A DNA stretch of 34,806 nt from a virus (Duplodnaviria; Heunggongvirae; Uroviricota; Caudoviricetes), in the IMG/VR virus record IMGVR_UViG_2695420763_000013; one strand, given 5' to 3'. The position numbers and the translations under genes are program-made. The notes under the pieces were generated by a model, which ran no database searches, had not been told where the DNA came from, and was given only the letters and a program-made list of their open reading frames with translations. Shown here one piece after another: positions 1,447 to 34,330 of this stretch; the stretch's first letter is position 1; each line of letters starts with the position of its first letter.

Positions 1447-1533
1447 GCTGAAAAACATAACCCATAAAATGCTAGCTGTACCAGGAACCACCTCCTTAGC
1501 CTGTGTAATCTCCCTTACACGGGCTAATTTTTT
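1447..1533 (+). ncRNA. cyaR: CyaR (RyeE) Hfq-dependent small RNA
   Basis: About 87 nt beginning GCTGAAAAACATAACCC, with the CCACCTCCTTA motif and a 3' hairpin plus T-run (CCCTTACACGGGCTAATTTTTT). Matches my memory of E. coli CyaR. A TATCAT -10-like hexamer lies at 1434..1439. The 3' end coincides with attL. Confidence 0.7.
1507..1533. other. attL: Prophage attL core (P2 att 27-mer, 26/27 identical to attR copy)
   Basis: AATCTCCCTTACACGGGCTAATTTTTT. The reverse complement matches the remembered P2 attP core AAAAAATAAGCCCGTGTAAGGGAGATT except one position. A second copy lies at 34304..34330. Confidence 0.7.
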
Positions 1534-1597
1534 ACGCGTAATACAATGAAATAAAAGGATTTATTTCTGGTCACGTCCACACATTGACCACATCGAC

Positions 1598-1624
1598 AAA
1601 AAAGCCCCTCGACTGAGGGGCTTT
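1598..1624 (-). terminator. Rho-independent terminator downstream of ogr
   Basis: GC-rich hairpin GCCCCTC-GACT-GAGGGGC flanked by an A-run on the plus strand, giving a T-run after the stem on the minus strand, about 10 nt past the ogr stop. Confidence 0.6.
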
Positions 1625-1634
1625 CCATTTGTAA

Positions 1635-1853
1635 TTACATCCACATAATTTGCTGCCCTGACGGCAACGGGTGCGGTCTTACGGCGTGGACTTCTCCCGG
1701 CTTCACGATGTATCTCTGTACCGACTCATAGGTGATGAACGTGGCGCTGCAATTCACGTTCTGGCACTGGTGATAACGCTCTTTTGTCGTGTCAGTGATA
1801 TAGCGACTTGTACGCGCATGTGCGGCATGCTGGCATAAAGGACAATGAAACAT
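1635..1853 (-). CDS. ogr: Late-gene transcriptional activator Ogr (zinc finger)
   Basis: 72-aa product from the internal ATG at 1851..1853 (MFHCPLCQHAAHARTSRY...CQNVNCSATF), with CxxC...CxxC zinc-binding pairs. Same length as P2 Ogr. The 100-aa ORF-track version is an upstream extension. Confidence 0.9.
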   Translation of the reverse strand: MFHCPLCQHAAHARTSRYITDTTKERYHQCQNVNCSATFITYESVQRYIVKPGEVHAVRPHPLPSGQQIMWM

Positions 1854-1933
1854 CGCGAGCACCTCTTCCGGTTTTGTTGATGGTGCCATTTTAGTTAATT
1901 TATCCTTATAAAACAAACAGATAAAACAAAACA

Positions 1934-3097
1934 TCACTCATCATCTTCGGTTTCGTACTCCACATCAGAAAGCCTGACCTCAAGCTCCAGGGACGTCGTG
2001 AAGCCGCTATTATTCAGAAAATGTGTCACCTTAGTGATTGTCCAGTCCTGCTCGTCTATGACGCGCTTAAAGCCTGACACTTTGACCGGCGTTTCCGTGT
2101 AAATATCTGCCCGACCAGTGGCAAGGCTGATGGAGAACTCCGCAACGCCCCGTTGCAGTTTGTCCCACTTCGCCTGAGCGGCGCGCATGGCCTGCGCTTT
2201 CGTGGCATATACCGTGGTCAGGGCAAAAACGTTGTCAGCCTCACCGGCCATGTATTCACCTTCGCGCGCTTCCGGTACTTTTGGCGCTTTCTTCTGCGTG
2301 ACCGGTTTCGCTTTCGGGTGCTCCAGTGCGCGCAGGTGTTTCTCTTTCTTTTTGCGTTTCAGTTTTACCTTCTGCTTTTGCGGCTTCGGGTCTTTGGTGT
2401 GTAACCACTTTGCCGTTACGCCGGTGTAGGCTCCACGGTCAGCAATCGCAAAATGATGACGGTCACCGTCGCTGCGGGTGAGGGTAATCTGCGGGATTTT
2501 TTTACCGCTGGCAGTCACCCCCTGCCCCGCTTTGAGAAACAGCAGTTTTCCCATTTTTACCGACACCTCACCGCCGTTGCGTTCAGCAAGACGGGTCAGG
2601 AATTTCGCATCAGACTCCTGCGACTGGTCGATGTGCGGGATTTTAATTCCGGCCAGTGACGGAGCGACACTGGCTTCCAGCCTGTTACGGGTGGCTATCG
2701 CCTCAACAATCGCACCGAGCGTGGTGTCATGCCAGGAGCCTTCCCGGCGGGAATTGAGCGTCCCGCGAAAATCTGCACTCCGGGCGCGGATGGTGACCAC
2801 ATCCGGCGCGCCCCGGTGTTCAACCTCATCAACGGTAAATTTCCCTTTGCATACCAGGGCAAAACCTTTCCAGCCGATATACACCGTCAGGACAGCGCCA
2901 CGAACCGGCAGTCCGACCTGCCCGTCGGCATCGTTCAGTTCAATATCAAGCTGGTCAGCCTCAAAGCCCCGGTTATCCGTCAGGGTCATGCTCATCAGAC
3001 GGTCGCTGATATTGCCGGTAATATCCCTGCTGTCGAGCATCAGCATGTAATCCGGTGTCAGCGTACTGCCTGCATCAAATGTCAGCGCATCCAGCAT
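1934..3097 (-). CDS. D: Tail protein D
   Basis: 387 aa, the P2 gpD length, directly upstream of ogr as in P2; lysine-rich central linker. Confidence 0.85.
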   Translation of the reverse strand: MLDALTFDAGSTLTPDYMLMLDSRDITGNISDRLMSMTLTDNRGFEADQLDIELNDADGQVGLPVRGAVLTVYIGWKGFALVCKGKFTVDEVEHRGAPDVVTIRARSADFRGTLNSRREGSWHDTTLGAIVEAIATRNRLEASVAPSLAGIKIPHIDQSQESDAKFLTRLAERNGGEVSVKMGKLLFLKAGQGVTASGKKIPQITLTRSDGDRHHFAIADRGAYTGVTAKWLHTKDPKPQKQKVKLKRKKKEKHLRALEHPKAKPVTQKKAPKVPEAREGEYMAGEADNVFALTTVYATKAQAMRAAQAKWDKLQRGVAEFSISLATGRADIYTETPVKVSGFKRVIDEQDWTITKVTHFLNNSGFTTSLELEVRLSDVEYETEDDE

Positions 3098-3576
3098 TAT
3101 CCCGCCCCCGTCATACCCGTGAATCTGGTCGCCATACTGCCGGCCTTACCGATGAGCGATTCCGTCTGTTTACCGATATCGCCATAAAGCGCGGCCAGTG
3201 ATTCATCAACGCGGGTGAGCGACAGCGTAAAATCAATTTTTCGGGGTGTGCCGTCTGCAAAGAAAATACACCCTGTTTCACTCACCTTGCTGATGACATA
3301 CATGCCGTAAATCATTCCGGTGCCATCCAGCAACGGCCACGCCCGGCCTTCCTCTGCCATCAGTCTGAGCGTGGTCATCGTCAGCTTTCCGCCGGTCAGT
3401 TCGGGATAAAGCACACCGGCAAGCGTAATGTTTTCCTCACCCACACCGAGAAACTGAAAGGCATCCCGTTTGCCGATACGGGAATTTGACGGCCAGCGAT
3501 AATCTGATTCACGCTGCATGGTCTGGTGTGGCAGCGTCTGGCGCATAAAAACAAACATACCTAACGCGAGCATCAT
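3097..3576 (-). CDS. U: Tail protein U
   Basis: 159 aa, the P2 gpU length; 1-nt overlap with D start; conserved position between T and D. Confidence 0.85.
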   Translation of the reverse strand: MMLALGMFVFMRQTLPHQTMQRESDYRWPSNSRIGKRDAFQFLGVGEENITLAGVLYPELTGGKLTMTTLRLMAEEGRAWPLLDGTGMIYGMYVISKVSETGCIFFADGTPRKIDFTLSLTRVDESLAALYGDIGKQTESLIGKAGSMATRFTGMTGAG

Positions 3577-3590
3577 TTTTCGTCACCTCC

Positions 3591-6038
3591 TTAACCGTCA
3601 TGCATCATGCTGGCACGGGCACGCGCACGTTTATCCCGCTCGTATTTTTCGAGCGCATCCTGTAACTGGCGGTCAAGCTGTGTCCCCGGCGCAGTACCAC
3701 CCGTCAGGCTGATGTGATATTCGTTTTTACTCTGGTCCACATAAGAGCGGCCAGCCGGTGCCGTGACCGGCTGATAAGCCTGATAGCCTGCATAAGAACT
3801 GGTCGCCGGAATATAACCACCGGTGCCATACGTGGCGGCATGAGTTCTGGCGGCGGTCTGGTCAAGTGTGTCTGACTCTTTGTTGATGACCCCGAGCTTT
3901 TCCAGTACCCAGTCAATACCGCTGCGCAGTTTGTTGAACGCATTAAGCGGCAGCATCAGCGCGTCAGCCAGTGCCTGCCCGAACATGACGCCCGTGTCAC
4001 GGCAACGGTTCAGGGTGTCCTGTGTGGCTTTGACCGGGGCAATCAGGTTTTTAAACCACTGCCACGCGGCCTGTAACTTTTCGCCCAGCCAGTCAAACAC
4101 CGGTTTCAGTGGCGTGAACAGCTCCCCCACCGGCGCAAATGCCGCTTTCAGCCCTTCCACCACACCGCCAAAGAATGCGCTGACAGGCTCCCAGTATTTA
4201 CGGATAAGCAACGCCCCGGCGACAATGGCGGCCACCACGGCCACAACCGGCCAGCTAATCGCCCCGATGGCCGTCATAACAGCACTGCCAACCGTCATGA
4301 AGATTGCCCCCATTGCGCCTGCTGCCGCGATAATGGCATTGATGCCGGTGATAACCGGCCATGCTACAAGACCAATGGCACCGATGATGCCAATAAGCGC
4401 CAGCGCGCCACCGACAATGAGGCCGATGGTTGACGCCAGTGATTTGTTTTTCTGGATCCAGCCGTCGAGTTTTAACACATACTTTGTGGCCGTCTGAGTG
4501 AGTTTACGCAGTGCGCCTTCCTGCTGGTCAAACAGGTCTGTCCCCACCGCCTCATAAGCGGACTGAAACTCCTTAAAGTCACCGCCGAGGTTGTCCTGCA
4601 TGATATTTACCAGCTCGGCGGTCTTCCCGTCTGAGGCTTTAAACGCAGCGGTCAGTTTGTCCAGCTTTCCGGTTGAGGCGGCAGTCATCAGCACGGCGGC
4701 GGCTGAGCTGGCCTCCTCCCCGAAAATGGTTTTCATGTATTCAGCCTGCTGGGCAGTACCGAGCCGATTTTTCTCAAAACTGGCCTGCATTTCTTTCAGA
4801 ATGGTAAATATTGGTCGGGTGTTTCCCTTGCTGTCTGAGGTTTTCACACCAAGCTCTTTCAGTGCATCCCATGCTTTTCCCGTCGGTGCCTGCAGGCGGC
4901 TTAACACGGCACGGCTTCCCGTCCCCGCCATTGAACCGGTAATTTTTGCATCATGCAGCGCCCCGACCATTGCGGCGGTTTCTTCAATGCTGACACCGGC
5001 ATTTTTTGCCACAGGTGCGGCATAGGTCAGCGCATCGCTCATGCCGTCAAAATCGGCGGCGGTTTTGTTCATCGTCATGGAGAGAACATCCCCGATATGA
5101 GCGACCTTATCGTTTGAAAGCTGAAAGGCGGATTTCATCCCCATCAACAGGGCGGCGTTTTCTTCCATCGTGCGACGGTTCGCCAGCGCCATATTCAGCG
5201 TGACCGGCGTTGCCGCCTGAATGGCATCAACATCCCCACCCGCTTTCGCGATGATTATCTGTGCACCGGCCGCATCATCCGCCGAGGCGGCGGTATTGTC
5301 GCCGAGCTGGCGCGCCTGTTTGCGTAGTGCGGTCATTTCGGCGGAGTCTTTTGCCACTCCGAGCACGGCCTGCAATTCTGAGTTTTTCTGCGCAAACTCA
5401 TAACCGGGCATCAGCAACTTAACTCCGGCCATCGTTCCCGCCGCCGCAATCCCCACACCGGCAGCGCCTACTGAGGCCATATTTCCGGCCAGTTCCTTTC
5501 CGGCCTGATAACGCTGTTTGACTGCGTTAAGTTTTGCCTGTTGCGCACTGACACGCGCCAGCGCGTCGCGCTGACGGTTAAGCTGTGCGGTGGTTTCACT
5601 GATACGGTTTTTCAGTCCCTGCTCATCATGTGCAAGATTGCGGGTATTAATTCCCACAGCGGCCAGTTCCCGCTGCTGGCGTTTAACGGAATCCGTCAGG
5701 CGGTTATATTTCGCCTGTAAGTCCTCCGCCGCTCGCTTTGCGGATTCCAGCACTTTCGCCTGAGCACGGGTCGGACGTTCGGTGTTTTTAAACTGTGTGG
5801 CAAGGGCTTCGGCTTCCTGCCGTGCCTTTTCAAGTGCATGACCAGTCACGGCGAGCTGCGCACTGGTCTTGCGAAATCCCTCAATACGGGATGCGTGACC
5901 GTTCAGCTCGCGCAGTGATTTTTGTGTTTCCCGGATATCCCCCGACAGCGACTTGCTCGCTGTGCGGATGGATTTAAACGGGCGGGATGCCTGGTCAACA
6001 GCCCTGAGCAATACCTGTAATTTTACATTGTTACTCAT
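3591..6038 (-). CDS. T: Tail tape-measure protein T
   Basis: 815 aa, the P2 gpT length. N-terminal coiled-coil-like Q/R/A-rich region and a central Gly/Ala-rich hydrophobic segment. Its start overlaps the E' stop (ATGAGTAA). Confidence 0.9.
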   Translation of the reverse strand: MSNNVKLQVLLRAVDQASRPFKSIRTASKSLSGDIRETQKSLRELNGHASRIEGFRKTSAQLAVTGHALEKARQEAEALATQFKNTERPTRAQAKVLESAKRAAEDLQAKYNRLTDSVKRQQRELAAVGINTRNLAHDEQGLKNRISETTAQLNRQRDALARVSAQQAKLNAVKQRYQAGKELAGNMASVGAAGVGIAAAGTMAGVKLLMPGYEFAQKNSELQAVLGVAKDSAEMTALRKQARQLGDNTAASADDAAGAQIIIAKAGGDVDAIQAATPVTLNMALANRRTMEENAALLMGMKSAFQLSNDKVAHIGDVLSMTMNKTAADFDGMSDALTYAAPVAKNAGVSIEETAAMVGALHDAKITGSMAGTGSRAVLSRLQAPTGKAWDALKELGVKTSDSKGNTRPIFTILKEMQASFEKNRLGTAQQAEYMKTIFGEEASSAAAVLMTAASTGKLDKLTAAFKASDGKTAELVNIMQDNLGGDFKEFQSAYEAVGTDLFDQQEGALRKLTQTATKYVLKLDGWIQKNKSLASTIGLIVGGALALIGIIGAIGLVAWPVITGINAIIAAAGAMGAIFMTVGSAVMTAIGAISWPVVAVVAAIVAGALLIRKYWEPVSAFFGGVVEGLKAAFAPVGELFTPLKPVFDWLGEKLQAAWQWFKNLIAPVKATQDTLNRCRDTGVMFGQALADALMLPLNAFNKLRSGIDWVLEKLGVINKESDTLDQTAARTHAATYGTGGYIPATSSYAGYQAYQPVTAPAGRSYVDQSKNEYHISLTGGTAPGTQLDRQLQDALEKYERDKRARARASMMHDG

Positions 6039-6458
6039 TCGTGTTTCCGCTTCGCCGGAGCGCCTTTTCGCGCCATGTGATGAGTTCGGTCAGGCTCATG
6101 GGATACAGTTCTGATGGCGGCCAGTGAAATATCACTGCCACATCCGCCATCAGGTCATCGACCGAGAGATTTTTCGGAAACGTCACTGCACCGAGTTCGG
6201 CGACAAAAAACCGACCACCTTACCGGCCAGCGCCACAAGGTCAGGCAGTTCCAGCGCGGCGACTTCCTGCTCGGTCAGCATCGGTGCCGTCATGCGCGGC
6301 AGCACTTTAATCAGTGCATCGACTTCGGAGTTCGCGACTGCAGCCAGACTGACACCGCGCAGCGTCCCGGCATTGGGTTTCATCAGCGTGACCTGTTCGA
6401 TAACCTGCTCACCACGTTTGACCGGATTGTCCAGGGTAATGACGTTTTCTTTGTTCAT
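6031..6458 (-). CDS. E': Tail assembly chaperone E+E' (programmed -1 ribosomal frameshift product)
   Basis: Slippery heptamer T-TTT-TTG (minus strand, plus-strand 6204..6210) lies 7 codons before the E stop. The -1 frame continues open for 57 codons to a TAA at 6031..6033 that overlaps the T start. Predicted product is 142 aa, the P2 E+E' length. Confidence 0.75.
6183..6458 (-). CDS. E: Tail assembly chaperone E
   Basis: 91 aa, the P2 gpE length; located between T and FII. Confidence 0.85.
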   Translation of the reverse strand: MNKENVITLDNPVKRGEQVIEQVTLMKPNAGTLRGVSLAAVANSEVDALIKVLPRMTAPMLTEQEVAALELPDLVALAGKVVGFLSPNSVQ

Positions 6459-6514
6459 GGTTTTCTCACTTCTGAATCGGGGTTAACCGGTCAGCCAGGC
6501 TGACCGGATGAAAA

Positions 6515-7033
6515 TCACAGGCCGATATTGCGGCGGTGTTGCTCCAGCCGGTCGACGCCGTTCACCTTCTCAATCATGTTGATGGTGTCGATTTCGACCA
6601 GCTCCTTACCGTCCATCGTCAGCCGGAAATAGGTGCAGACCACGGAGATTTTCGACTCGGTGTCTTCTCCCTGTTTGCCCTCGCCGGTGTCGATTTCTTT
6701 CTGACGGCCACGCATGACCACCTCGACGGCCACCGTTTCGCCGGTATCGTCGCGCTGGTAAGAGCCGGCAAAACGAATCGGTACGGCATCCACACCGGTT
6801 GCGGCGTAAAGCTCCCAGATAACCGAATCCGGGAAGCCACCGAGCGACCACTCCATTGACAGCGCATCGTCATCAAGGCCGAGGTCTACCGGTGCGCTGC
6901 CGTTCATCCCCGCACCGCGATAGTTTTCGAGCTTACGGGTCAGTTTTGGCAGCGTGACGGACTTCGCGACGCCCTGATAGCTGTAGCCGTTCAGAAAGAC
7001 GTTCATTAACTTGAGTTTGCGCGGCATTGCCAT
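6515..7033 (-). CDS. FII: Tail tube protein FII
   Basis: 172 aa, the P2 gpFII length; immediately downstream of FI. Confidence 0.9.
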   Translation of the reverse strand: MAMPRKLKLMNVFLNGYSYQGVAKSVTLPKLTRKLENYRGAGMNGSAPVDLGLDDDALSMEWSLGGFPDSVIWELYAATGVDAVPIRFAGSYQRDDTGETVAVEVVMRGRQKEIDTGEGKQGEDTESKISVVCTYFRLTMDGKELVEIDTINMIEKVNGVDRLEQHRRNIGL

Positions 7034-7045
7034 CGGTCAGGCTCC

Positions 7046-8236
7046 TTAATTGCTGTTAACCGAGGTGACCAGATTTGCCAGGTATTTATCGGTAATACGC
7101 TGGCGCAGGGTCAGGTTTTCAAGAGGAGGCACCGGTGTATAGTCGTAGTCGATATACAGTTTTCCGGCCTTGAGGGTTTCCGCATCGTTGGATTCTTCGC
7201 TGAACCAGCAGGTCGCATCCACGATATAGCCGTTTGTTTTCAGCTCACGGAATTTGGCATTGATGCCGTCAACGATGTCGCGAATCAGCGTTGCGGTGAT
7301 GGGCTTGTCCACCGCCCACATGTGCGCCTCAGCCATCGTGTCGGCCAGCACCTGCGCGGTGCGGGTGTAGTTTTCAAAGAGGAACAGCGGGTCATCAGAG
7401 CAGGTACGGTTACCCCAGAAGCGGAAACCGTCGCGGCGAATCAGCGTAGTGACGCCTGACTCATTAAGCAAGTCAGCATCGGTGCCGGACTCCTGCAAAT
7501 CCCAGAATACAGAGGCGCTGATGCCGGTAACACCGTTCACCCCGACATTGGACAGCGTTTTATGCCAGCCCTGCTCCTGGTCGATTTTGGCACGCAGCCC
7601 CAGTGCACGGGCGGTGGCATACGCGGTGGCGGTGGTACTGGTGACCGTATCCCATGCGAGGAAATCCGGCCAGATGACCATCAGCTCACGCTGGCTGAAA
7701 TTCTGACGGTAGGCTTTCACCTCGGAAATGGTTTTACAGCCCCATGCGCTGATATACCCGAAAGCGCGCAGCTTCTGACAGACTGATGCCAGTGCAACAG
7801 CCACCTCTTTGGTGTCCAGTCCCGGCACGCCGAGAATACGCGGTTTAACACCGGTTACCGACTCTGCCGCCAGCAGGGCTTTCAGTCCGGTATACTGACC
7901 GTTTTCGTCGGTGGTGCCGATGATATTGGAAACGGTCTGCGCGAGTTTCGTTTCTTCGTCTTCGCCGGTGCCGTCTTCAACACGCACGACAACGGTGACC
8001 GGTTTTGACTGGTCAGCGATGGCCTGTAACGACGCCGCCAGCGTGCCTTTTTTACCGGCCTTTGCAATTGCGCTCTGCACATTGGTAATCAGCACCGGTT
8101 TATTGAGGGGGAAGATTTCCGCATCCGCATCGCTGGCCGTGCAGACCATGCCGACAATGGCAGTGGATACGGTGGAAATGACGCGGGTGCCGTCGTTAAT
8201 CTCCAGCACCTGCACGCCGTGATGATAGTCACTCAT
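7046..8236 (-). CDS. FI: Contractile tail sheath protein FI
   Basis: 396 aa, the P2 gpFI length; conserved synteny. Confidence 0.9.
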   Translation of the reverse strand: MSDYHHGVQVLEINDGTRVISTVSTAIVGMVCTASDADAEIFPLNKPVLITNVQSAIAKAGKKGTLAASLQAIADQSKPVTVVVRVEDGTGEDEETKLAQTVSNIIGTTDENGQYTGLKALLAAESVTGVKPRILGVPGLDTKEVAVALASVCQKLRAFGYISAWGCKTISEVKAYRQNFSQRELMVIWPDFLAWDTVTSTTATAYATARALGLRAKIDQEQGWHKTLSNVGVNGVTGISASVFWDLQESGTDADLLNESGVTTLIRRDGFRFWGNRTCSDDPLFLFENYTRTAQVLADTMAEAHMWAVDKPITATLIRDIVDGINAKFRELKTNGYIVDATCWFSEESNDAETLKAGKLYIDYDYTPVPPLENLTLRQRITDKYLANLVTSVNSN

Positions 8237-8889: not shown

Positions 8890-8956
8890 GATGGATCCCC
8901 TGAATAAAAACCGGGGATGATGCCAGTTAGCCGTAATCTCTGCATTTTCTTAAACG

Positions 8957-8971
8957 TTGGTTTGGGAGAAG
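8957..8971 (+). other. Putative invertase crossover-site core, copy 1 (TTGGTTTGGGAGAAG)
   Basis: Identical 15-mer at 10579..10593 (same orientation) and 12416..12430 (inverted); in each copy it encodes G-L-G-E at the junction between constant and variable tail-fibre parts. Confidence 0.55.
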
Positions 8972-9318
8972 CGGCGAAAAGGGATGTGGGTACAGGAGAA
9001 AATCAGATACCGGATATGTCAGCCTGGAAAAGAAATCCGAGTTCTAATCGCTGGAGAAAATTGCCTGATGGAACCATCATTCAAATGGGAATATCAGCAT
9101 CAGGGCCATTAGGCTCACCTGTAAATATCACCCTGCCGATATCTTTCAGCAATACCAATTATTGTGTTGTTGCATCGTACGATAATGCACGGTCAGGTGT
9201 GTCAACAATGGTTAGTTTTGCAGCATTACCTGTTTCACCATCGCAATTTTCCCTGATGTCATCTGTGACTGAGCAAGGAATAAATCCTTTTGCTTACTGG
9301 ATTGCTTTTGGAGATTGA
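8959..9318 (+). CDS. Promoterless tail-fibre C-terminal cassette (exact copy of the H C-terminus)
   Basis: Translation from the crossover core (GLGEAAKRDVGTGENQ...AFGD) is identical to the last ~120 aa of H (12069..12430, minus strand). The upstream part of the ORF-track ORF 8917..9318 is out-of-cassette read-through. Confidence 0.5.
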   Translation, partial: GLGEAAKRDVGTGENQIPDMSAWKRNPSSNRWRKLPDGTIIQMGISASGPLGSPVNITLPISFSNTNYCVVASYDNARSGVSTMVSFAALPVSPSQFSLMSSVTEQGINPFAYWIAFGD

Positions 9319-9321
9319 TAA

Positions 9322-9741
9322 ATGGACAGATACTTCTATTCACAAAAAGAAAATGGTTTTTTTACCGATTTAAATAAAGCACCTTCAGATGCTGTTGAGA
9401 TAACCACGGATGAATGGCTATCACTACTGGATGGTCAGGATAATGGCATGAAAATAGTCAGCAATCAGGAGGGATATCCGGTTTTGACAGAGCAACCACC
9501 TTTATCAAAAGAAAACCTTATTGCATTGGTAGAGTTGAAAAAAGGAAAACTTATTAATGAAGCCAACGAGCACATGAACAGCAGGCAATGGCCTGGTAAA
9601 GCGGCTATTGGTCGTCTGAAAGGTGAGGAACTGGCGCAATATAATTTGTGGCTGGATTATCTGGACGCACTGGAGCTGGTCGATACTTCCAGTGCGCCAG
9701 ATATTGAATGGCCTACGCCTCCGGCAGTTCAGGCCAGATGA
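9322..9741 (+). CDS. Tail fibre assembly chaperone (Tfa family), copy of 11646..12065
   Basis: 139 aa with a Tfa-type C-terminus (WLDYLDALELVDTSSAPDIEWPTPP); identical to the chaperone immediately downstream of H. Confidence 0.7.
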   Translation: MDRYFYSQKENGFFTDLNKAPSDAVEITTDEWLSLLDGQDNGMKIVSNQEGYPVLTEQPPLSKENLIALVELKKGKLINEANEHMNSRQWPGKAAIGRLKGEELAQYNLWLDYLDALELVDTSSAPDIEWPTPPAVQAR

Positions 9742-10315
9742 TATCCGGCGCGGTGCTGGTATCTGTTACCGTCACCGCGTCAATGTAATCCAGCACGGCG
9801 TTAAGTCGGGTTGTTTCTGCCTGCGTCAACTTCCGTCCGGCCTGCAATTTCAGTTGAATCAGACTAATGGAAGCCATTGCAGTATCAATCAGTGACTGAC
9901 GTTGTGCTTCTGCCGCGTCTACTGCGGCGCTATGCTGTGCCTCGGTATCCGTCACCCATTTCTCACCATCCCATTTATCGTATGGCGTTAACGGGGCGAT
10001 AGTGGTTGTATTATCAGGGTAATCACCCGGAACTGTGATTTCTTTTGATTCTCCTGTTTCGGTGCTAAAGACGATTTCACCGCGATGGTCTGGCACATAT
10101 TCCCATGAGTTAAAATCTGCAGATCGGCAGATTGCATAACCAGCTTTGTATGCGCCTGGGGCATCTAAACAGGAATATGCCGGAATGCCGACACCAATAG
10201 CAAGATATTCAGTTGAAGCTGAAATATATTCCCGACTCATGACATCAAAGTTATAAACAGTAATTTCTCCTGCCATAGTGGCAATTAATTCACTGTTTAA
10301 TTCTGCGTTATTCAT
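9713..10315 (-). CDS. Tail fibre assembly chaperone (Tfa family), copy of 11072..11674
   Basis: 200 aa with a Tfa-type C-terminus (LDYIDAVTVTDTSTAPDIIWPELP); identical to the plus-strand copy. Confidence 0.7.
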   Translation of the reverse strand: MNNAELNSELIATMAGEITVYNFDVMSREYISASTEYLAIGVGIPAYSCLDAPGAYKAGYAICRSADFNSWEYVPDHRGEIVFSTETGESKEITVPGDYPDNTTTIAPLTPYDKWDGEKWVTDTEAQHSAAVDAAEAQRQSLIDTAMASISLIQLKLQAGRKLTQAETTRLNAVLDYIDAVTVTDTSTAPDIIWPELPEA

Positions 10316-10576: not shown

Positions 10577-10578
10577 TA

Positions 10579-10593
10579 TTGGTTTGGGAGAAG
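10579..10593 (+). other. Putative invertase crossover-site core, copy 2
   Basis: TTGGTTTGGGAGAAG at the start of cassette B, 2 bp after the end of the left repeat arm. Confidence 0.55.
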
Positions 10594-20026: not shown

Positions 20027-20029
20027 CGG

Positions 20030-21103: not shown

Positions 21104-21161
21104 AGTTTTTCCTGAAATTAAGGGTTAATCGTGAAGGTTTTCCCGGACTGACTGACGCCGG

Positions 21162-25340: not shown

Positions 25341-27173
25341 TTAACAACGTAATTCTGTACAATTAGCCCATTCTTCAGAAAAAACAGCATCTGAAGATTT
25401 TGGCCCTGGCCTTGCTTGATTAATTGAAATTCTTACAGGCAAATTAAATGCAGAACCAAATGCAACAGCATCACCTCTTGGTAAACCTGATATTTGTTTT
25501 AAGATTTGTTCATTACCGCTTTCCATTGCATATCTGAGAGCCTGTAAATCTCTTTCATTAGTCAAACGTAACGAAAACCAGTTTGAACACATTGCCAAAA
25601 CAGTAGGAGAAAGCTCTGAGGGTCGCTGAGTACTGACAATTAAAGAGCATTTGAATTTCCTACCTTCTTTAGCAAGTCGTTCATATGCTTTAATCTGTGA
25701 GTCAATTTCAGCATAAGGGTCACGCAGGTAATGATGCGCTTCTTCCAACAAAAGTACCGTAGGATACGAACGTTCCTGCCCACGTCTAAATAGTATCTCA
25801 GCAAACATCTCCAACAATGCACTAAGTAACATTGGAGCATGATCTTGTGCCAAATTTTTCATATTAACTATATGAACATTCCAATCATTTTCTTGTCCTT
25901 TTTCCTTACCAAAGAAGTAATCAACTTCATCACTCATAGCTTTATCCCAATGCGTTCCACCATCTGCTAGCTCACCCCCTCCATTTAAATTAACAATAGA
26001 TTTAAATCTTATATCCTCTGCAAGTTGTTGTATGATTTTTACCAATGGCAACACGTTACTAAAACCAAACGCGTCACGTTTACTTCCATTAGAACGGTCA
26101 GCAGCTACACATCCAAATTCAGCAACCAAAGTCGCTAAACTTTTAAACGGTGGCCATACATTCGTTCTTTTAAGACGTCTACGCCTTAATAAATCCAACC
26201 ACTCAGCCAATTTACTTTGATTTGTGTCACGACAATCATCATACAAAAGAAAAGTTTCACCATCATCTTTTTCCAAGTAAATATTACGGCTTTTAAAATG
26301 AGTCCGATTAATTGCACTTAATGCATTTCTTAATGCGGGCAATTGTGTTTTATCACTTGGTCTTAATAATTTAATTAACCCAGCAAAACCTAATGCCTGA
26401 TATGGTATCTTTTTATAACAATAATACTCTTCACTATATAGCTCACCCTTTTGCTGCTTTTTTTCCAAACTATCAACATTTGGGGATTCCCCTAGAATAG
26501 TGTGCTTTACATTTGGAATACCTGTAAAAGCTTGCGCGTATTCACCATTTATGTCAAAAATAACTATTCTTGAGTTAGGGTATTTTTCAGAAACCTTCCT
26601 CGTTAACAAAGCATTGAAATTTGATTTACCATATCCTGTACTACCAAGAACGGCTAAGTGTCGCGACAATAATTTATCAACACTTGCAAATATCTTAACG
26701 GTTTTAGTTCGAGAATCCACACCTAATTCAACCGCTTTTGGGAGTTCTTCTTTATCAATACTATAAATGATGTTCAAAAAATCTGAAGTCAAAGGAACAG
26801 CAGAAGAACCCAATGCAGGTAAGCGCCAATCTTCTGATATAAAAACATAACCATTTAACTCCCTTTTCACAAAGCCAATTGCATAGGCGATAATTTGTCT
26901 TAGAGGTATATCAGCTAAATCAGATGTGCCTACATTTGCCTTATGCGCTTTATCCGCTTCAACAAATGCCATATCTGTCACTCTTGCGACAACTAATATA
27001 TTACCTGCATCGAACCCAATAAGATCTCCTGGTTGCGTTACTGAGCTCACCCCCTTTCTATGCGATGCTAATCTGCCTTGCAACCCCTCATGCAGGTTTA
27101 TCCTAATTCTTTCCCCTTCTAATCCTACAACGTATCCAATAGCCGAGATTTCAGTAAGTTTAAAAAGGGACAT
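25341..27173 (-). CDS. HerA-like ATPase/helicase (defence cargo, gene 2 of 2)
   Basis: 610-aa product from the ATG at 27171..27173, preceded by AAAGGAG 6 nt upstream. Walker A GSTGYGKS (about residue 183), Walker B-like VLLLEEAHHY, and an IVSTQRPSEL motif typical of HerA/FtsK-type ATPases. AT-rich. The ORF-track start at 27224 is a TTG. Confidence 0.85.
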   Translation of the reverse strand: MSLFKLTEISAIGYVVGLEGERIRINLHEGLQGRLASHRKGVSSVTQPGDLIGFDAGNILVVARVTDMAFVEADKAHKANVGTSDLADIPLRQIIAYAIGFVKRELNGYVFISEDWRLPALGSSAVPLTSDFLNIIYSIDKEELPKAVELGVDSRTKTVKIFASVDKLLSRHLAVLGSTGYGKSNFNALLTRKVSEKYPNSRIVIFDINGEYAQAFTGIPNVKHTILGESPNVDSLEKKQQKGELYSEEYYCYKKIPYQALGFAGLIKLLRPSDKTQLPALRNALSAINRTHFKSRNIYLEKDDGETFLLYDDCRDTNQSKLAEWLDLLRRRRLKRTNVWPPFKSLATLVAEFGCVAADRSNGSKRDAFGFSNVLPLVKIIQQLAEDIRFKSIVNLNGGGELADGGTHWDKAMSDEVDYFFGKEKGQENDWNVHIVNMKNLAQDHAPMLLSALLEMFAEILFRRGQERSYPTVLLLEEAHHYLRDPYAEIDSQIKAYERLAKEGRKFKCSLIVSTQRPSELSPTVLAMCSNWFSLRLTNERDLQALRYAMESGNEQILKQISGLPRGDAVAFGSAFNLPVRISINQARPGPKSSDAVFSEEWANCTELRC

Positions 27174-28528: not shown

Positions 28529-30652
28529 TCATTGTTGATTATCAGCATCCTGTACATTGAAAATCGCGGTTGACTCGCCAACTATGCCTGCTCGTGTGTC
28601 TCCTTTGTTTGTACATTTACGTGATGCTTCTATTTTCAATGCCAGATTAAGCACTTTCAAGACCTCCGGGTCATTCCATTCGATAACACCGTCATCTACC
28701 AGATTAAGCACTGCTGCGGCGTGCTCAGAAGGTGTGGGAGCCGGTAACGAAGTATCACCACCGGTGAGCTTTCCACAGTTATTGACAGGACTCCGAGGCG
28801 CGGCGATGCCGCTTTTTAAAGTTAAAGGCTCCACGACCGGAACTTTCGGAACAATGCGCCAGTCCGTCGTTCTGGTGATATGAATATGACGCGCGCCGAG
28901 ATGCGGCGCGTAAATGCCGACCACTCTCTCGACTTCTTCCTCGTACTCGTTAACTTCATCCGACGGGCTACGGGCGACTCTGACAGTCTGGCAATCGCGC
29001 GGAACATTTGCCCCACCCTGCGCACTGATATACAACGCAAAATCGCCACTGTCTGCGGCAGCGCGTGCAGCCTCGACGCGTTCGTCAAACTCATCAGCTA
29101 TGCTGACGCCGCGAGGCAATTTGCGTAGTTCACGGTAAGCCCCCATTGTCGGCAGACCAACCGTTTTAAATTGCGGGATGCGCCACGTTGACGCCCATGC
29201 AGTAACAGCCGCGGCAGTATCTTTCAGAGGTCTGCCGGTATCGTTATCGAGCTGACCATCCAGTGCATAGCCGTCGATATTTTTTGAAATGTATTTCGCG
29301 ATATACCCCGCAGCACCGCCCCGATTAAGATGTTTTGCCTGAAAACGGTTTCGCGCAGCTCCTCTTTCGTCGCCATCCTCTTTGAGCGCGTAGCGACGCA
29401 TGATTTCGATAATCTGGTTACGCTGGCGTGGATTACAAAAAAGCATCATATGCCAGTGCGGCGTTCCGTCGTGGTGTGGCTCGACGACTCGCAAACCGTA
29501 GACCTGTAAATCATTATCCTTGAATGCCGTGCGCATCAGGCTCCAGATACGGCAGAGATAACGCTGCGCATCCTTTGGATTAAATGCCTCATCGTTCCAG
29601 CCGTGATTTAGCTGGACGGTTTTACTTTCGCCTTTTCCAACCTGACGTGTCGGGTGATACTTTGACGGCGCGGTCAGCGTGATAAACATCCCCACATCAC
29701 CTTCTGCGGCGGCGTAACGCTCAATACCGGCAATGGTGTTCATCAGCTCCATCCGGCGAATTTCAGGATTAGAAATACTGCCCATCACCTTACTGATAAG
29801 GTCGATGCGCTCGCCTGTTTCCCTGTTTTCGAGATCACACGATTTAAGAAATTCCAGATTTGCCTGGCGGCGTGCACGCACATCACGAATGGCATGTTTA
29901 CTGGCATAAGGAGAACGGTCTTTATTGACCTCCCCGACAGCAATCAGTAACGCCTCATGCCAGCGCATACGCTGGCCTTTAAGCTGACTAATCCACCACT
30001 CATCGTTAAACAGACGGGCAATGGCAGAATATGCCTGCCTCGTGGTCATCTGTCCTTTACGGTATTTTTTCCAGTAGAGAGGGGAAATATTGAAAGCACG
30101 TGCAGCGCCAGCAACATGACCATACAGATGCGCCTGAGCCTCATCCGTAAACAGCGATTCTTTCTCGCCATGTGCATCAACCCATGCATCGCAGAGTTCC
30201 TCATACATCATGAAAAGCTGCGATGAGATACGGGCGGCAAACTTTTTCAGTTCCTTGTCATTCATCCCCGGCAGACGCGCATAATGGTCACGCTCTGCCA
30301 GAAACAGCAACGACGCGTCGGTGTTCATTTCATGGCGCTGATTCACGCGCTCAATGCGCGGCCATAAACGACGCTGAAAAGTGGATGTGAGGAAATAAAA
30401 CCCGTGCACCGGGCTTTTATTGCGCCGGATGTAGTCATAGCGTGAAGTAAACAGCGAGCGCAAAAAGTAAGGCAGGCGGTTAATCGTGGATAAAACACCT
30501 TGCACCTGACGCATCTCGTCACGTGTAAGGGGTCTTTCGCGCCCGACAGCCTCGCGTGGCGCGTTCCATGCATAAGCACCGGTAAACGCCTTACCGGTGC
30601 CTGCGGCAAATGCTGATGGAGGGACAAAACGCCCGGAGGCTTTAACGGCCAT
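28529..30652 (-). CDS. A: Replication initiation protein A (rolling-circle HUH nickase)
   Basis: HUH-like HWHMMLF and a two-tyrosine GYIAKYISK motif typical of superfamily rolling-circle initiators. Start set at the ATG 30650..30652 (MAVKASGRF) from memory of the P2 gpA N-terminus; the ORF track extends to 30694. Confidence 0.8.
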   Translation of the reverse strand: MAVKASGRFVPPSAFAAGTGKAFTGAYAWNAPREAVGRERPLTRDEMRQVQGVLSTINRLPYFLRSLFTSRYDYIRRNKSPVHGFYFLTSTFQRRLWPRIERVNQRHEMNTDASLLFLAERDHYARLPGMNDKELKKFAARISSQLFMMYEELCDAWVDAHGEKESLFTDEAQAHLYGHVAGAARAFNISPLYWKKYRKGQMTTRQAYSAIARLFNDEWWISQLKGQRMRWHEALLIAVGEVNKDRSPYASKHAIRDVRARRQANLEFLKSCDLENRETGERIDLISKVMGSISNPEIRRMELMNTIAGIERYAAAEGDVGMFITLTAPSKYHPTRQVGKGESKTVQLNHGWNDEAFNPKDAQRYLCRIWSLMRTAFKDNDLQVYGLRVVEPHHDGTPHWHMMLFCNPRQRNQIIEIMRRYALKEDGDERGAARNRFQAKHLNRGGAAGYIAKYISKNIDGYALDGQLDNDTGRPLKDTAAAVTAWASTWRIPQFKTVGLPTMGAYRELRKLPRGVSIADEFDERVEAARAAADSGDFALYISAQGGANVPRDCQTVRVARSPSDEVNEYEEEVERVVGIYAPHLGARHIHITRTTDWRIVPKVPVVEPLTLKSGIAAPRSPVNNCGKLTGGDTSLPAPTPSEHAAAVLNLVDDGVIEWNDPEVLKVLNLALKIEASRKCTNKGDTRAGIVGESTAIFNVQDADNQQ

Positions 30653-30917
30653 ATGAGCCAAAAGCCTCTGAACAACGCTTGCTGAGTTGCTCAACCTGCG
30701 CGTTTAAATCAGCAAAAGACTTTGCGCTTCCGGTCAGAATATCGTGATGCATCATGCCGGAAACGAGCTGGCTTAATTTCGGGTAATAACCAACCACCGA
30801 CAGCCATTCCTGACCGGCGTTTTTACCGCTTTCCGCTCTCTTTTTCTCGTGGAGAATAAACTGAAAGCTGTCACTGGTAACGACATAACGTTCGCCAATT
30901 TCAATACGAATACTCAT
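30642..30917 (-). CDS. Early-region small protein (P2 orf83 position)
   Basis: 91-aa ORF immediately upstream of A on the same strand; 4-nt overlap with the next ORF. Confidence 0.5.
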   Translation of the reverse strand: MSIRIEIGERYVVTSDSFQFILHEKKRAESGKNAGQEWLSVVGYYPKLSQLVSGMMHHDILTGSAKSFADLNAQVEQLSKRCSEAFGSYGR

Positions 30918-31138
30918 GCCGTTCTCCGGTAATGTTTGTTTTTTGCTTCAAAGACTGACTGACAGGAAACACAACGCGTGGCTGACGGATAAGCCGCACG
31001 ACGGGCAGCAGGTATTGGCACGTCACACTCTTCGCAAACCAGCGCAGAAACACCGCAATGTTTTACCCTTGCCGCGTTAATCTGGCGCTCCAGTAATTCA
31101 GCCTGTTGTTCCTGAATGAAATCTACGTTGTCCGGCAT
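30914..31138 (-). CDS. DksA/TraR-type C4 zinc-finger protein (P2 orf82 position)
   Basis: 74 aa with CxxC-(17)-CxxC (CEECDVPIP...RCVSCQ). Confidence 0.6.
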   Translation of the reverse strand: MPDNVDFIQEQQAELLERQINAARVKHCGVSALVCEECDVPIPAARRAAYPSATRCVSCQSVFEAKNKHYRRTA

Positions 31139-31443
31139 TACCAGTTCCTTTTGTCGTTCAGTTTCTTAAATTCATCAGCGCAATAGCTGACGATTTCTGT
31201 CGTTAATTTTGTCAGTTCATCCACGGAGGAAATTTGCTTGTGGAATACAGCGCGTTTAACAAGTAAATTGACCACATCAGACAGGAGGTTTAATTCATTC
31301 TGATAAATCGCGATAACAGATTCAGTTATGTCGCGTTTTTCTTTATCAAGACAAAGTTGAATAAGAGATAAATCACCATTTTCCATAACGGCGATTTTTA
31401 AGGCGTTATTCAGTAATACAACTGAATGAGAACAGGACATCAA
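31138..31443 (-). CDS. Early-region small protein (P2 orf81 position)
   Basis: 101-aa ORF in a tightly overlapping same-strand series. Confidence 0.5.
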
Positions 31444-31664
31444 AGCACCTCCCCGCGAGACAATCCGATATTGTGAAATTTTTCCGACTCCTGACTGAGC
31501 AGCTCGACTATCTCCACGCGGGATAACTCCGCCTTTGTGATATGGCGAATCATGGCGTCAAGATGAGAAGAAAAGCGCGTCGCAGCGTCGGCCTGTGCTT
31601 CGGTTCTGGCCTGTTGCAGCAGTAATGCGTATTTACCGCACTGATTTTCAGAAACTGTATGCAT
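31440..31664 (-). CDS. Early-region small protein (P2 orf80 position)
   Basis: 74-aa ORF with 4-nt overlap to the next gene. Confidence 0.5.
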
Positions 31665-31727
31665 GACTTTCTCCAGGCAAAAAGAAGCCCCGCACGATTA
31701 AGTGCGTTAAAAACTCTGGTTAATTAT

Positions 31728-32234
31728 TTAATGCAGATATTGCTCTGGTTTTACCGACGTCAGAATTGTCGGTGCATACTCAAACAGACTGAATAATTCA
31801 CGTAATGCACGGAATAAAGCATCACGCCAGTAACATGATTCTTCATTAATTCGCCAGTACGGCTGGTTGAATTCTTTTTCTGTCAGTCGTGCGTGCATAA
31901 ATAAAGTACGTCGCTGGCTGACTGTTAAAAAACTAATATATGCATACTCACTTGCACCGACCTGACGGCGTTTTGAGAATGCCCCACGCAATTCATCAAT
32001 TGCACAAACCAGCCGTTCACGTTCGACGTCGTTCATTTCTTCAAAACGCATCGTTGCGTGACGCTGTTTTAACTGTGCATGAAAGCAAACCGTTAGCCGT
32101 TCGCGCTCCATCATCTGATTATAATAATCACATGTATCCTGCCAGCGAGGGACGGCAAGATGCTTGCCAATTATCCGGCGCATAGCTGCTGGCTGTTTTT
32201 CAACGAGATTGAGCGTCATCACTGTCATTTCCAT
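31728..32234 (-). CDS. B: Putative replication protein B (helicase loader)
   Basis: 168 aa at the P2 gene B position between cox and A. Call based on position and size only. Confidence 0.55.
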   Translation of the reverse strand: MEMTVMTLNLVEKQPAAMRRIIGKHLAVPRWQDTCDYYNQMMERERLTVCFHAQLKQRHATMRFEEMNDVERERLVCAIDELRGAFSKRRQVGASEYAYISFLTVSQRRTLFMHARLTEKEFNQPYWRINEESCYWRDALFRALRELFSLFEYAPTILTSVKPEQYLH

Positions 32235-32419
32235 ACCCTCCGGCTTTTCAGAAAGGTCAGAGCCTTTTTTAACGGACTCTGTTTTTTGGTGCGGATAATG
32301 ATTCCCTTACGCCCCTTACCGTGGGTGATGGTGAAGTCAATCGCCCTGGGGCTTTCGTTACGCAGTAACTGAGCAATACAACGAGGCTCATTCATACGGT
32401 TCTCCTTAACGTGGTTCAC
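32225..32419 (-). CDS. Small early protein (P2 orf78 position)
   Basis: 64-aa ORF, possibly starting at the internal Met MNEPRCIAQ; overlaps the cox stop. Confidence 0.4.
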   Translation of the reverse strand: MNHVKENRMNEPRCIAQLLRNESPRAIDFTITHGKGRKGIIIRTKKQSPLKKALTFLKSRRVWK

Positions 32420-32681
32420 CGAGACCTAACCACATCAACCAGCCGTCACGAATCTCTTTAGGGCGGCTTTCATAAGCCAGTTTTAGTCCGTTATTCCATG
32501 CCGGAAGGTATACCCAATATTCACCTGCACGACCTGAAGCTGATTGTGGATCGGTCATATCAATTACAGGCAGCTTTCCTTTATCGATCATCCGACGAAC
32601 CGCTCCTGTCGATTTTCCTATTAGTTTTGCGAACTCCTGATAAGGAATCGCATCAGTCATGAGTGTTACTTGCTTGCTCAT
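32406..32681 (-). CDS. cox: Cox (excisionase and regulator of the lysis-lysogeny switch)
   Basis: 91 aa (MSKQVTLMTDAIPYQEFAKLIGKSTGAVRRMIDKGKLPVID...), the P2 Cox length; divergent from C. Confidence 0.85.
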   Translation of the reverse strand: MSKQVTLMTDAIPYQEFAKLIGKSTGAVRRMIDKGKLPVIDMTDPQSASGRAGEYWVYLPAWNNGLKLAYESRPKEIRDGWLMWLGLGEPR

Positions 32682-32795
32682 GTCGTCCTCTAGCCCTCAT
32701 GAATTGCGTTTAATGTCTTATAATGCCTTTTAGTGCCCACATCCAAGCACTAAACAATCTACATCTAAACTAAATACTATTGAGATCTAAACACC
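32682..32795. promoter_or_regulatory. C/cox switch region (Pc/Pe promoters and operators)
   Basis: 114-bp divergent intergenic region with a TATAAT hexamer at 32719..32724, an inverted repeat TTAGTGC-N11-GCACTAA at 32730..32754, and two direct TCTAAAC repeats before the C start. Confidence 0.45.
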
Positions 32796-33095
32796 ATGTC
32801 AAACACGATAAGCGAGAAGATAGTCTTAATGCGAAAATCAGAGTATTTGAGCAGACAACAACTTGCTGATTTAACAGGGGTTCCGTATGGCACGCTGAGT
32901 TACTATGAAAGTGGTCGTTCAACACCTCCAACAGATGTCATGATGAACATCCTGCAGACCCCACAATTCACCAAATACACTTTATGGTTCATGACCAATC
33001 AGATCGCTCCTGAGTCCGGGCAAATTGCGCCCGCTCTCGCACACTTTGGGCAAAACGAAACAACGTCGCCCCACTCCGGTCAAAAGACTGGTTAA
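32796..33095 (+). CDS. C: Immunity repressor C
   Basis: 99 aa, the P2 C length; HTH-like segment LSRQQLADLTGVPYGTLSYYESG. Confidence 0.85.
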   Translation: MSNTISEKIVLMRKSEYLSRQQLADLTGVPYGTLSYYESGRSTPPTDVMMNILQTPQFTKYTLWFMTNQIAPESGQIAPALAHFGQNETTSPHSGQKTG

Positions 33096-33210
33096 CAATT
33101 CATCGTGAATATATTCATCACAAGTGCCTACTATTGGTGGCTAAATTTCAGCCACCACGAAAAAAGCGATTAGTAGTCGCAAAAAAACACACCACTCGGA
33201 GGGTTTTCTG

Positions 33211-34224
33211 ATGGCAATCAAAAAACTCGATGATGGTCGATATGAAGTGGACATCCGCCCTACTGGACGTAATGGAAAACGCATCCGTAGGAAGTTTGAT
33301 AAGAAAAGCGAAGCTGTCGCTTTCGAGAAATACACGTTGTACAACCACCACAATAAAGAATGGCTATCAAAACCAACAGACAAGCGACGTCTGTCGGAGC
33401 TGACACAGATCTGGTGGGATTTAAAGGGTAAACACGAAGAGCATGGGAAATCTAATCTTGGGAAAATTGAAATCTTCACAAAAATAACGAATGACCCATG
33501 CGCATTTCAAATTACGAAATCGCTTATCAGCCAGTACTGCGCCACCCGAAGAAGTCAGGGTATTAAACCTTCGAGTATCAATCGTGATTTAACATGTATT
33601 AGCGGCATGTTTACAGCCCTGATTGAAGCGGAGTTATTCTTTGGTGAGCACCCTATCAGAGGGACAAAAAGGCTTAAGGAGGAAAAACCAGACACAGGCT
33701 ATCTCACGCAGGAAGAAATTGCCTTACTGCTTGCTGCTCTTGACGGCGACAACAAAAAGATTGCGATTCTTTGCCTGAGTACTGGAGCACGTTGGGGAGA
33801 AGCAGCTCGTTTGAAAGCAGAAAATATCATCCATAACCGCGTCACGTTTGTTAAAACGAAAACAAACAAACCACGCACCGTCCCGATCTCAGAGGCTGTT
33901 GCCAAAATGATCGCGGATAACAAACGAGGTTTTTTATTCCCTGATGCTGATTACCCTCGCTTCAGACGAACAATGAAAGCAATAAAACCGGATTTGCCAA
34001 TGGGGCAAGCTACACATGCACTAAGGCACAGCTTTGCCACTCATTTCATGATTAATGGAGGAAGTATTATCACGCTACAACGGATACTAGGTCACACGCG
34101 GATTGAGCAAACTATGGTTTACGCTCATTTTGCGCCAGAGTACCTTCAGGACGCCATTTCTCTTAATCCGCTAAGAGGTGGTACTGAGGTCGAGAGTGTC
34201 CACACAGTGTCCACAGTAGAGTAA
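33211..34224 (+). CDS. int: Tyrosine integrase
   Basis: 337 aa, the P2 Int length; catalytic-domain motifs (TGARWGE, HALRHSFATH, LGHT-IEQTMVYAH with the terminal Tyr); directly precedes attR. Confidence 0.9.
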   Translation: MAIKKLDDGRYEVDIRPTGRNGKRIRRKFDKKSEAVAFEKYTLYNHHNKEWLSKPTDKRRLSELTQIWWDLKGKHEEHGKSNLGKIEIFTKITNDPCAFQITKSLISQYCATRRSQGIKPSSINRDLTCISGMFTALIEAELFFGEHPIRGTKRLKEEKPDTGYLTQEEIALLLAALDGDNKKIAILCLSTGARWGEAARLKAENIIHNRVTFVKTKTNKPRTVPISEAVAKMIADNKRGFLFPDADYPRFRRTMKAIKPDLPMGQATHALRHSFATHFMINGGSIITLQRILGHTRIEQTMVYAHFAPEYLQDAISLNPLRGGTEVESVHTVSTVE

Positions 34225-34303
34225 CGTTTAAGGGCTTTCAGTGGTAATTTATGCCGCTCAAACCCGCATTGTACCGTTGAAAGCCCCTACTGGTGACACC
34301 CTA

Positions 34304-34330
34304 AATCTCCCTTACACGGGCTTATTTTTT
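34304..34330. other. attR: Prophage attR core (exact P2 att 27-mer)
   Basis: AATCTCCCTTACACGGGCTTATTTTTT, the reverse complement of the remembered P2 attP core; 80 bp downstream of the int stop. Confidence 0.75.

Follow-up and report, generated by a model that had tools for sequence, protein, structure and literature searches.

The window analysed here, a stretch of 34,806 nucleotides (nt) from the IMG/VR virus record IMGVR_UViG_2695420763_000013, holds at positions 1507-34330 what we consider, with good confidence, to be a temperate prophage of the P2 type (Peduovirus), inserted at the classical P2 site, probably viable and not SOS-inducible. A first-pass annotation of the window had described a complete-looking P2-like prophage bounded by attachment (att) cores at the 3' end of cyaR, and this description is supported by the genes, by the integrase arm sites and by the empty site found in other genomes. 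By every sequence criterion testable here, bar the C-terminal tail of the replication initiator gpA, the element belongs to the P2 group. The positions of its genes and sites are collected in Table 1.

When the 42 annotated proteins of P2 (NC_001895, Peduovirus P2) were run against the window by tblastn, 36 of them were recovered full length and without gaps at 82-100% identity, or 92-100% if protein I (82%) is set aside. They include the late genes Q, P, O, N, M, L, X, Y, K, lysA, lysB, lysC, R, S, V, W, J, I, FI, FII, E, T, U, D and ogr, and the early and switch genes int, C, cox, orf78, B and orf80-83. The late genes keep the P2 order (Q P / O N M L X Y K lysABC R S / V W J I H / FI FII E E' T U D / ogr), and the E+E' frameshift product agrees with its P2 counterpart at 142 of 143 positions (stop counted), its slippery site matching at 21 of 21. 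Also shared with P2 are the regulators C, Cox and Ogr, the class of chromosomal site, the att core and the cis-acting sites, with cos, the ori context, the Int arm sites, the Cox boxes, Pe, Pc and the operators each matching at 26/27 or better. The promoter regions PV and PF differ from those of P2 and are 100% and 98% identical, respectively, to those of the P2-like phage pro483; a TGT-N12-(A/C)C(A/C) motif of the activator type is retained in both, and takes the form TGT-N12-CCA in PF. The predicted excised genome, 32,797 bp versus 33,593 bp in P2, is of a size that fits P2's 33.6-kb capsid capacity.

Homology to P2 DNA is interrupted in three places. Between S and V, P2 orf30 is absent and the spacer (15750-15815, 66 nt) is identical to that of pro483. 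Over 8317-13427, a Gin-family invertase and a cassette for tail-fibre inversion take the place of the P2 stretch that runs from the C-terminus of I through fun(Z); fun(Z) and G are gone, as is H in its C-terminal part, analogous chaperones stand in for G, and H shares just its N-terminal part (42%) with P2 H. Over 25213-28656, orf91, tin and old have given way to genes for SIR2 and HerA. These two modules thus stand in place of P2 accessory genes. Protein I (13253-13864) has 203 amino acids (aa) versus 176 in P2 and goes with the pro483-type fibre module. The first-pass annotation had listed P2 int, C, cox, terminase, portal and cos between the cores, and all are intact. Its wider statement that there are no obvious disruptions holds for the 36 full-length, gapless proteins but not for gpA, whose C-terminal tail has been replaced; similarly, the switch (C and Cox) and the packaging functions (P, M, Q and cos) are intact as it had claimed, whereas gene A, on the replication side, is not simply intact.

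The two 27-nt att cores, at 1507-1533 (AATCTCCCTTACACGGGCTAATTTTTT) and 34304-34330 (AATCTCCCTTACACGGGCTTATTTTTT), are 26/27 identical and lie 32,797 nt apart. The right copy agrees at all 27 positions with the attP core annotated in P2 and the left copy has one mismatch, as had been noted in the first pass. As each core adjoins the correct half of the P2 attachment region, the duplicated core is, judged from its sequence setting, not a chance repeat. The arm sites of attL and attR are arranged as in P2: within attL the Int P arm (28/28) and the ogr/F-operon terminator (24/24) are exact, and the site for integration host factor (IHF), at 29/34, is the sole weaker element of the att region. Base 1526 is A in the attL of the window and in that of a second prophage, in E. 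coli LR9-2, while the equivalent base is T in P2 attP, in the K-12 remnant described below and in all attR copies recovered. Since the A is common to the attL of LR9-2, the variant appears to be phage-derived. The simplest reading of the core mismatch is that the attP of this prophage has the A and that strand exchange took place to the left of 1526, in which case attL would have received the base of the phage and attR that of the bacterium. In the U-rich terminator tail of cyaR, the variant turns one U into A; six U's remain, and CyaR is still scored full length by Rfam despite the change.

The assignment of the left core to the cyaR terminator follows from the Rfam call of CyaR at 1445-1530, whose score is to be read against a gathering score of 47 for this family. 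No tRNA gene, and no Rfam family besides CyaR, was found in the window. We rebuilt the empty site as left flank, one core and right flank and searched it in 5,426 complete E. coli genomes, counting a genome when one place covered at least 80% of the rebuilt site, with pieces joined across gaps of up to about 1 kb. The rebuilt site was continuous in 4,565 of these genomes. In the other ~860 (16%) the yegQ and yegR flanks were not together as one place, which suggests that the site is frequently occupied, by P2-like or other occupants. A further class of genomes has an extra piece of about 170 bp (for example TUM13881). K-12-type strains have about 0.6 kb extra at the site, annotated as ogrK and a D-family gene fragment. 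This cryptic P2 remnant lies at the same site and in the same orientation, and its post-core sequence is that of the window's attL arm; it differs in being only ~0.6 kb long and in having T in the core where the window's attL has A. The comparison at yegQ-cyaR-yegR that the first pass had called for thus finds the flanks contiguous elsewhere, and confirms both the cyaR terminator as the site and its statement that K-12 carries only a P2 remnant (ogrK). The host flank directly to the right of the prophage (34331-34440) itself resembles a phage P arm and belongs to the 'empty' site in most E. coli, so that the attB region has the appearance of a remnant of an earlier P2-like attL.

The immunity switch is that of P2, C and Cox being 100% identical to their P2 counterparts, with 29/29 matches over Pe and both operators and 26/26 over Pc. 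P2 is the classical non-inducible temperate phage of Bertani, and the 2016 review by Christie and Calendar is said to treat it as such. Phage 186 (Eganvirus) has related late genes and a related gpA core, and differs in features that are absent from this prophage: CI, Apl and CII and the LexA-controlled tum that are annotated in 186 and form the basis of its SOS inducibility. A tblastn search of the window for 186 Tum, CI, Apl and CII gave no homologues (short fragments only, E >= 0.016). The window has no LexA box of the form CTGT-N8-ACAG, and the looser motif CTG-N10-CAG occurs 7 times versus 8.8 expected by chance. By these sequence features the prophage is not an inducible phage of the 186 type. 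In the P2 family, SOS induction of a prophage requires tum and LexA cleavage, as was shown genetically for a prophage of E. coli HS, and spontaneous release from P2 lysogens is Cox-dependent. We would therefore expect rare spontaneous, Cox-dependent release and no response to mitomycin C or ultraviolet light, because a P2 C repressor, with neither Tum nor a LexA box, offers no SOS input.

The first-pass annotation had concluded that the element looks inducible. All switch, replication and packaging genes are indeed present and some P2-family prophages are SOS-inducible, but those relatives depend on the LexA-controlled tum, and the window has neither tum, nor a 186-type CI, nor a LexA box, while its repressor is the very one of the classic non-inducible case. 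It is thus very improbable that DNA damage or another signal switches this prophage to lytic growth.

Whether the non-inducible P2-type prophage is also viable turns mainly on gene A. The protein (707 aa) is P2-like up to about residue 665 and recognisable similarity is gone by residues 673-675; at the DNA level, homology to P2 stops at 28657 and the codons from ~666/674 on are not P2-like. In place of the conserved C-terminal ~90 residues the protein ends in an unrelated tail of roughly 35-40 residues. The ori nick context inside the gene (28781-28806) matches P2 at 26 of 26 positions. We rejected the idea that the mismatch, seen as the tblastn stop at 673-675, is the ordinary edge of a variable hotspot, as P2, 9W, S164, R18C and 720R8 differ in cargo and have a common conserved gpA tail to about residue 755. 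Several observations speak against a viable phage. Nine other P2-like phages with diverse cargo have a gpA of 759-768 aa (760-768 aa in PhiR44_1, STYP1, 12474III and 569R9), and among the P2-like phages compared only pro483 has a shorter one, of 723 aa and without the last ~40 residues. PGAP marks the same gene A allele as 'incomplete; missing C-terminus', that is, as a pseudogene, in LR9-2, O121, O18 and XH987. None of 50,697 phage records has the SIR2-HerA cargo with this gpA tail, and two of its carriers look degraded, the O18 copy having a deletion from J to O and the XH987 copy frameshifted lysis genes. To these may be added a 1,622-nt inverted duplication in the window, which may lock the fibre switch or be an assembly error, and the fact that the near-identity to LR9-2, set out next, could in principle stem from transfer of a chromosome segment.

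LR9-2 (NZ_CM188245.1, 2809.5-2840.7 kb) has this phage too, at the same site and with the same cargo, gpA allele and attL core variant; there it differs in having its single invertible segment in the opposite orientation and in being without the 1,622-nt duplication. The inverted segment and the 1,622 bases that the window has in addition at 8957-10578 are the only departures from collinearity with LR9-2. Over the ~31.2 kb of prophage there are 19 mismatches (0.06%), and the part at 25306-34324 has no differences (0%), whereas the left host flank (1-1506) has 23 mismatches (1.5%) and the right one (476 nt) has 13 mismatches and one indel (2.7%). The host flanks are thus 25-45 times more diverged than the prophage. 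On the right, the differences begin in the T-run of the core and 17 nt beyond the core; on the left, the last flank difference lies 157 nt from the core. A shift in divergence located at the att cores is the pattern predicted for independent lysogenisation of two hosts by one phage, and we therefore read it in this way; the phage has probably spread recently. E. coli does exchange chromosome segments, and the left breakpoint is not finely resolved, so that homologous-recombination transfer of a segment containing the prophage, which would be silent on viability, has to be considered. It is nevertheless improbable, as the right-hand differences start at the core and two breakpoints would have been needed, both almost exactly at the cores.

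With a near-identical copy at the same att site in a diverged host, we judge the phage probably viable despite its short gpA tail, and consider it quite likely, from these comparisons, that it is replication-competent. The competing explanation is that acquisition of SIR2-HerA truncated gpA and left a replication-defective, cryptic prophage, kept since its defence genes benefit the host. It would account for the unusual gpA length, for the pseudogene flag in four other genomes, for the absence of this combination from phage records and for the decay of the O18 and XH987 carriers. Yet the divergence pattern with LR9-2 needs a recent infection and integration, and P2 gpA acts in cis, so that a helper phage could not have supplied it. 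The replaced part, moreover, lies outside the family-wide core of gpA: conservation between P2 and 186 stops near residue 640 (SPVNNC), and 186 gpA, of 694 aa, has an unrelated tail beyond that point. This core and the ori are intact in the window, as are all other genes. Taken with the truncation in pro483, the comparison with 186 and the spread to LR9-2 argue that the gpA tail is dispensable, and we regard a cryptic prophage as unlikely.

The cargo that adjoins gpA lies in the cos-proximal gpA-gpQ hotspot, which was described beside cos in P2-like phages by Rousset et al. Its SIR2 gene product shows no sequence difference from that of the system in PDB 8J4U/8SU9, which is here seen in a natural setting, and its two genes overlap by 14 nt. 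By sequence, the pair is the structurally characterised SIR2-HerA (Nezha) system of E. coli. The published mechanism of this system is depletion of nicotinamide adenine dinucleotide (NAD+) on infection, coupled to nucleic-acid processing and resulting in abortive infection. Given the sequence identity to the published system, it is very likely that the pair protects against phages through NAD+ depletion here as well. The cassette together with the gpA tail is 99.5-99.8% identical in O121, O18 and XH987, all of them at the cyaR site, as against just ~97.7% for the backbone. This excess of cassette identity over backbone identity indicates that the cassette has recombined into different P2-like backbones.

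The second module is a tail-fibre switch. Its invertase, next to FI, occupies the same position as in pro483, and from the cassette H can receive either of two C-terminal ends, both of which come with a Caudo_TAP chaperone of their own. The crossover sites, 26 bp long and of the TTCTCCCAAACC-AA type, include a and c, which are inverted relative to each other. In LR9-2, the opposite orientation gives an in-frame H of 439 aa (Hc+Hv2), so that both orientations exist in nature. The LR9-2 invertase (11316-11909 in its locus) has R135C relative to the window and pro483. In the phage collection, the late region is matched best by pro483 (NC_028943), with 91% coverage and 97.1% identity. This phage shares the invertase position, the four-gene layout of the invertible cassette, the lack of orf30 and a shortened gpA, and differs in its hotspot cargo (a DUF4238 protein), in its Hv1 end, in having no duplication and in its immunity region, where the protein in the position of Cox has 123 aa. 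With the Gin, Cin and Pin systems (the Mu G, P1 C and e14 P segments) the prophage shares a serine invertase close to Gin, 26-bp sites and alternative fibre ends with chaperones. Long inverted repeats whose outer ends bear crossover sites are natural to the P1 C segment, and the repeats of this prophage, which are 1,621 nt long, perfect and 232 nt apart, resemble them.

These repeats result from the extra block at 8957-10578, an inverted copy of 10810-12430 plus one orphan A, with no mismatch in 1,621 nt and a spacer of 232 nt (10578-10809). A repeat search gave arms of 1,633 nt at '100%'; on direct comparison, exact identity starts at 8957 and extends over 1,621 nt. The left end of the block coincides with the central dinucleotide of the crossover site nearest the invertase, and its right end falls 1 nt short of the central TT of a hybrid site, b, the outer half of which is interior Hv2 sequence. 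The good crossover sites now stand at the outer ends of the inverted repeat. Inversion between a and c always restores the same fibre, Hc+Hv1 of 395 aa, and the alternative 439-aa fibre seen in LR9-2 would need the half-defective site b, so that the duplication probably locks the tail fibre in its Hv1 form. A clean invertase-mediated exchange with a quasi-site at 10795-10820 was rejected as the origin, given that the central dinucleotides are AA versus TT and that one base is left orphaned. One may think instead of a break at the crossover site that was joined to a quasi-site or to a broken end inside Hv2, or of the integration of an excised segment.

We consider a real, invertase-associated rearrangement and an assembly artefact roughly equally likely. 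The junction is absent from the 5,426 complete E. coli genomes, from IMG/VR, from the GTDB genomes and from the JGI metagenomes, and LR9-2 is without the duplication. Invertible segments are heterogeneous in cultures, and an assembler faced with a culture containing both orientations could have produced the block; for such an artefact we see a substantial chance, if one below even. The inner junction, however, from Hv2 interior to the inner half-site, has no shared sequence that could mislead an assembler, P1 offers a natural precedent for long repeats of this arrangement, and the block sits exactly at the crossover point. This last position favours the enzyme, while the uniqueness of the junction and the perfect identity of the copies fit either explanation. 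The fuller proposition that the duplication is real, was made by the Gin-type invertase and has phase-locked the fibre, and that the 707-aa gpA shows the C-terminal ~90 residues to be dispensable, is one that we hold only tentatively, at just short of an even chance.

From these features one may draw a picture of the life cycle of the prophage. A tyrosine integrase would have inserted it at the 3' end of cyaR, between yegQ and yegR, duplicating the 27-nt core and in this way rebuilding the cyaR terminator with one base changed. Lysogeny would be held by the P2 C repressor at Pe, with the lytic switch a stochastic flip between C and Cox, and excision would need Int, Cox and IHF. Thereafter, gpA is expected to nick ori within its own gene and so start rolling-circle replication, and Ogr to turn on the four late operons. 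The Gin-type invertase, in turn, would flip the cassette that supplies the two alternative C-termini of H, each with its chaperone.

Table 1. Features of the window, in order of position, with the evidence on which each assignment rests
Feature	Position	Strand	Evidence and remarks
yegQ/trhP, host gene, left flank	1..1362	+	Open reading frame (ORF); annotation under the empty-site matches and in LR9-2
CyaR small RNA gene	1445..1530	+	Rfam RF00112, 97.6 bits, model positions 1-85 of 85; terminator rebuilt by attL
attL core	1507..1533	.	26/27 to P2 attP core; A replaces T at 1526
Phage P-arm side of attL	1532..1624	-	IHF site 29/34; Int P arm 1569-1596; ogr/F-operon terminator 1601-1624
ogr, late-gene activator, 72 aa	1635..1853	-	100% to P2
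F operon: D, U, T, E+E' (slippery site 6193-6213), E, FII, FI; tail sheath, tube, tape measure and related	1934..8236	-	98-100% identity
Gin-family serine DNA invertase, 197 aa	8296..8889	-	Pfam Resolvase 2.9e-52 and HTH_7; Mu Gin PDB 3UJ3, 316 bits
Crossover site a	8945..8970	+	TTTTCTTAAACG TT GGTTTGGGAGAA; adjoins invertase
1,622-nt insertion relative to LR9-2	8957..10578	.	Inverted copy of 10810-12430 plus one orphan A
Silent Hv1' end	to 9318	+	Inside duplication
Chaperone G1'	9322-9741	+	Inside duplication
Chaperone G2	9713-10315	-	Inside duplication
Truncated Hv2 C-terminal fragment	10316-10577	-	Inside duplication
Site b	10567..10592	+	CGCACCGTCCTA TT GGTTTGGGAGAA; right half-site alone matches well
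Ordinary invertible segment	10581..12065	.	Pfam Collar, Caudo_TAP; layout as in pro483; inverted in LR9-2
Alternative fibre end Hv2'	10581/10584-11072	+	Within invertible segment
Chaperone G2'	11072-11674	+	Within invertible segment
Chaperone G1	11646-12065	-	Within invertible segment
H tail fibre, current fusion Hc+Hv1, 395 aa	12069..13256	-	Pfam Phage_tail_fib, N-terminal, 2.1e-62, and Gp53-like_C
Crossover site c	12417..12442	-	Inside H, encoding ...YLGLGE
V operon (baseplate): I (203 aa, 82% to P2), J, W, V	13253..15749	-	tblastn
O operon: S, R, lysC, lysB, lysA, K, Y, X, L, M, N, O; capsid, small terminase, lysis, tail completion	15816..22016	-	94-100% identity
Ogr activator site common to the PO and PP promoters	22096..22126	.	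31/31 to P2
P (large terminase, 590 aa) and Q (portal, 344 aa)	22190..24996	+	99.8% and 98.3% identity
cos, 19-nt cohesive-end sequence	25165..25183	.	19/19 to P2
HerA ATPase, 610 aa from the start used in the solved structure	25341..27173	-	PADLOC HerA 2.1e-277; PDB 8J4U_M, 1378 bits over 610 aa
SIR2 NADase, 415 aa	27160..28407	-	PADLOC SIR2 4.3e-190; 415/415 identical to PDB 8J4U_A/8SU9
Gene A, rolling-circle replication initiator, 707 aa	28529..30652	-	tblastn to P2; tail alignment
Early genes orf83, orf82, orf81, orf80, B, orf78	30642..32395	-	92-100% identity, full length
Immunity switch: cox 32406-32681 (-), Pc 32699-32724, Pe and operators 32774-32802, C 32796-33095 (+)	32406..33095	.	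P2 match
int, tyrosine integrase, 337 aa	33211..34224	+	99.4% to P2
Int P' arm and Cox boxes of attR	34190..34287	.	P' arm 26/27, Cox boxes 74/74 to P2
attR core	34304..34330	.	27/27 to P2 attP core
Host flank resembling phage P arm	34331..34440	.	88/113 aligned identity; 15-nt exact CATTGACCACATCGA
yegR, host gene, right flank	34489..34806	-	ORF; annotation under the empty-site matches and in LR9-2

The finding is correct and ordinary: P2-like prophages at the cyaR site are common, the gpA-gpQ defence hotspot has been published, this exact SIR2-HerA system has solved structures, and the cargo and the fibre switch are known modules in known positions. Its importance beyond correct annotation is thus small. 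For annotation, the proper entry is a P2-type prophage that is not SOS-inducible; calling gene A a 'pseudogene', as is done in related genomes, may be a mistake, and the duplicated region needs checking against raw reads before host range is interpreted. If the 707-aa gpA works, the conserved C-terminal ~90 residues of P2 gpA would be dispensable, and if the duplication is real, it would illustrate the origin of long inverted repeats of the kind found in the P1 C segment. The host, for its part, would gain from the prophage an immunity based on NAD+ depletion.

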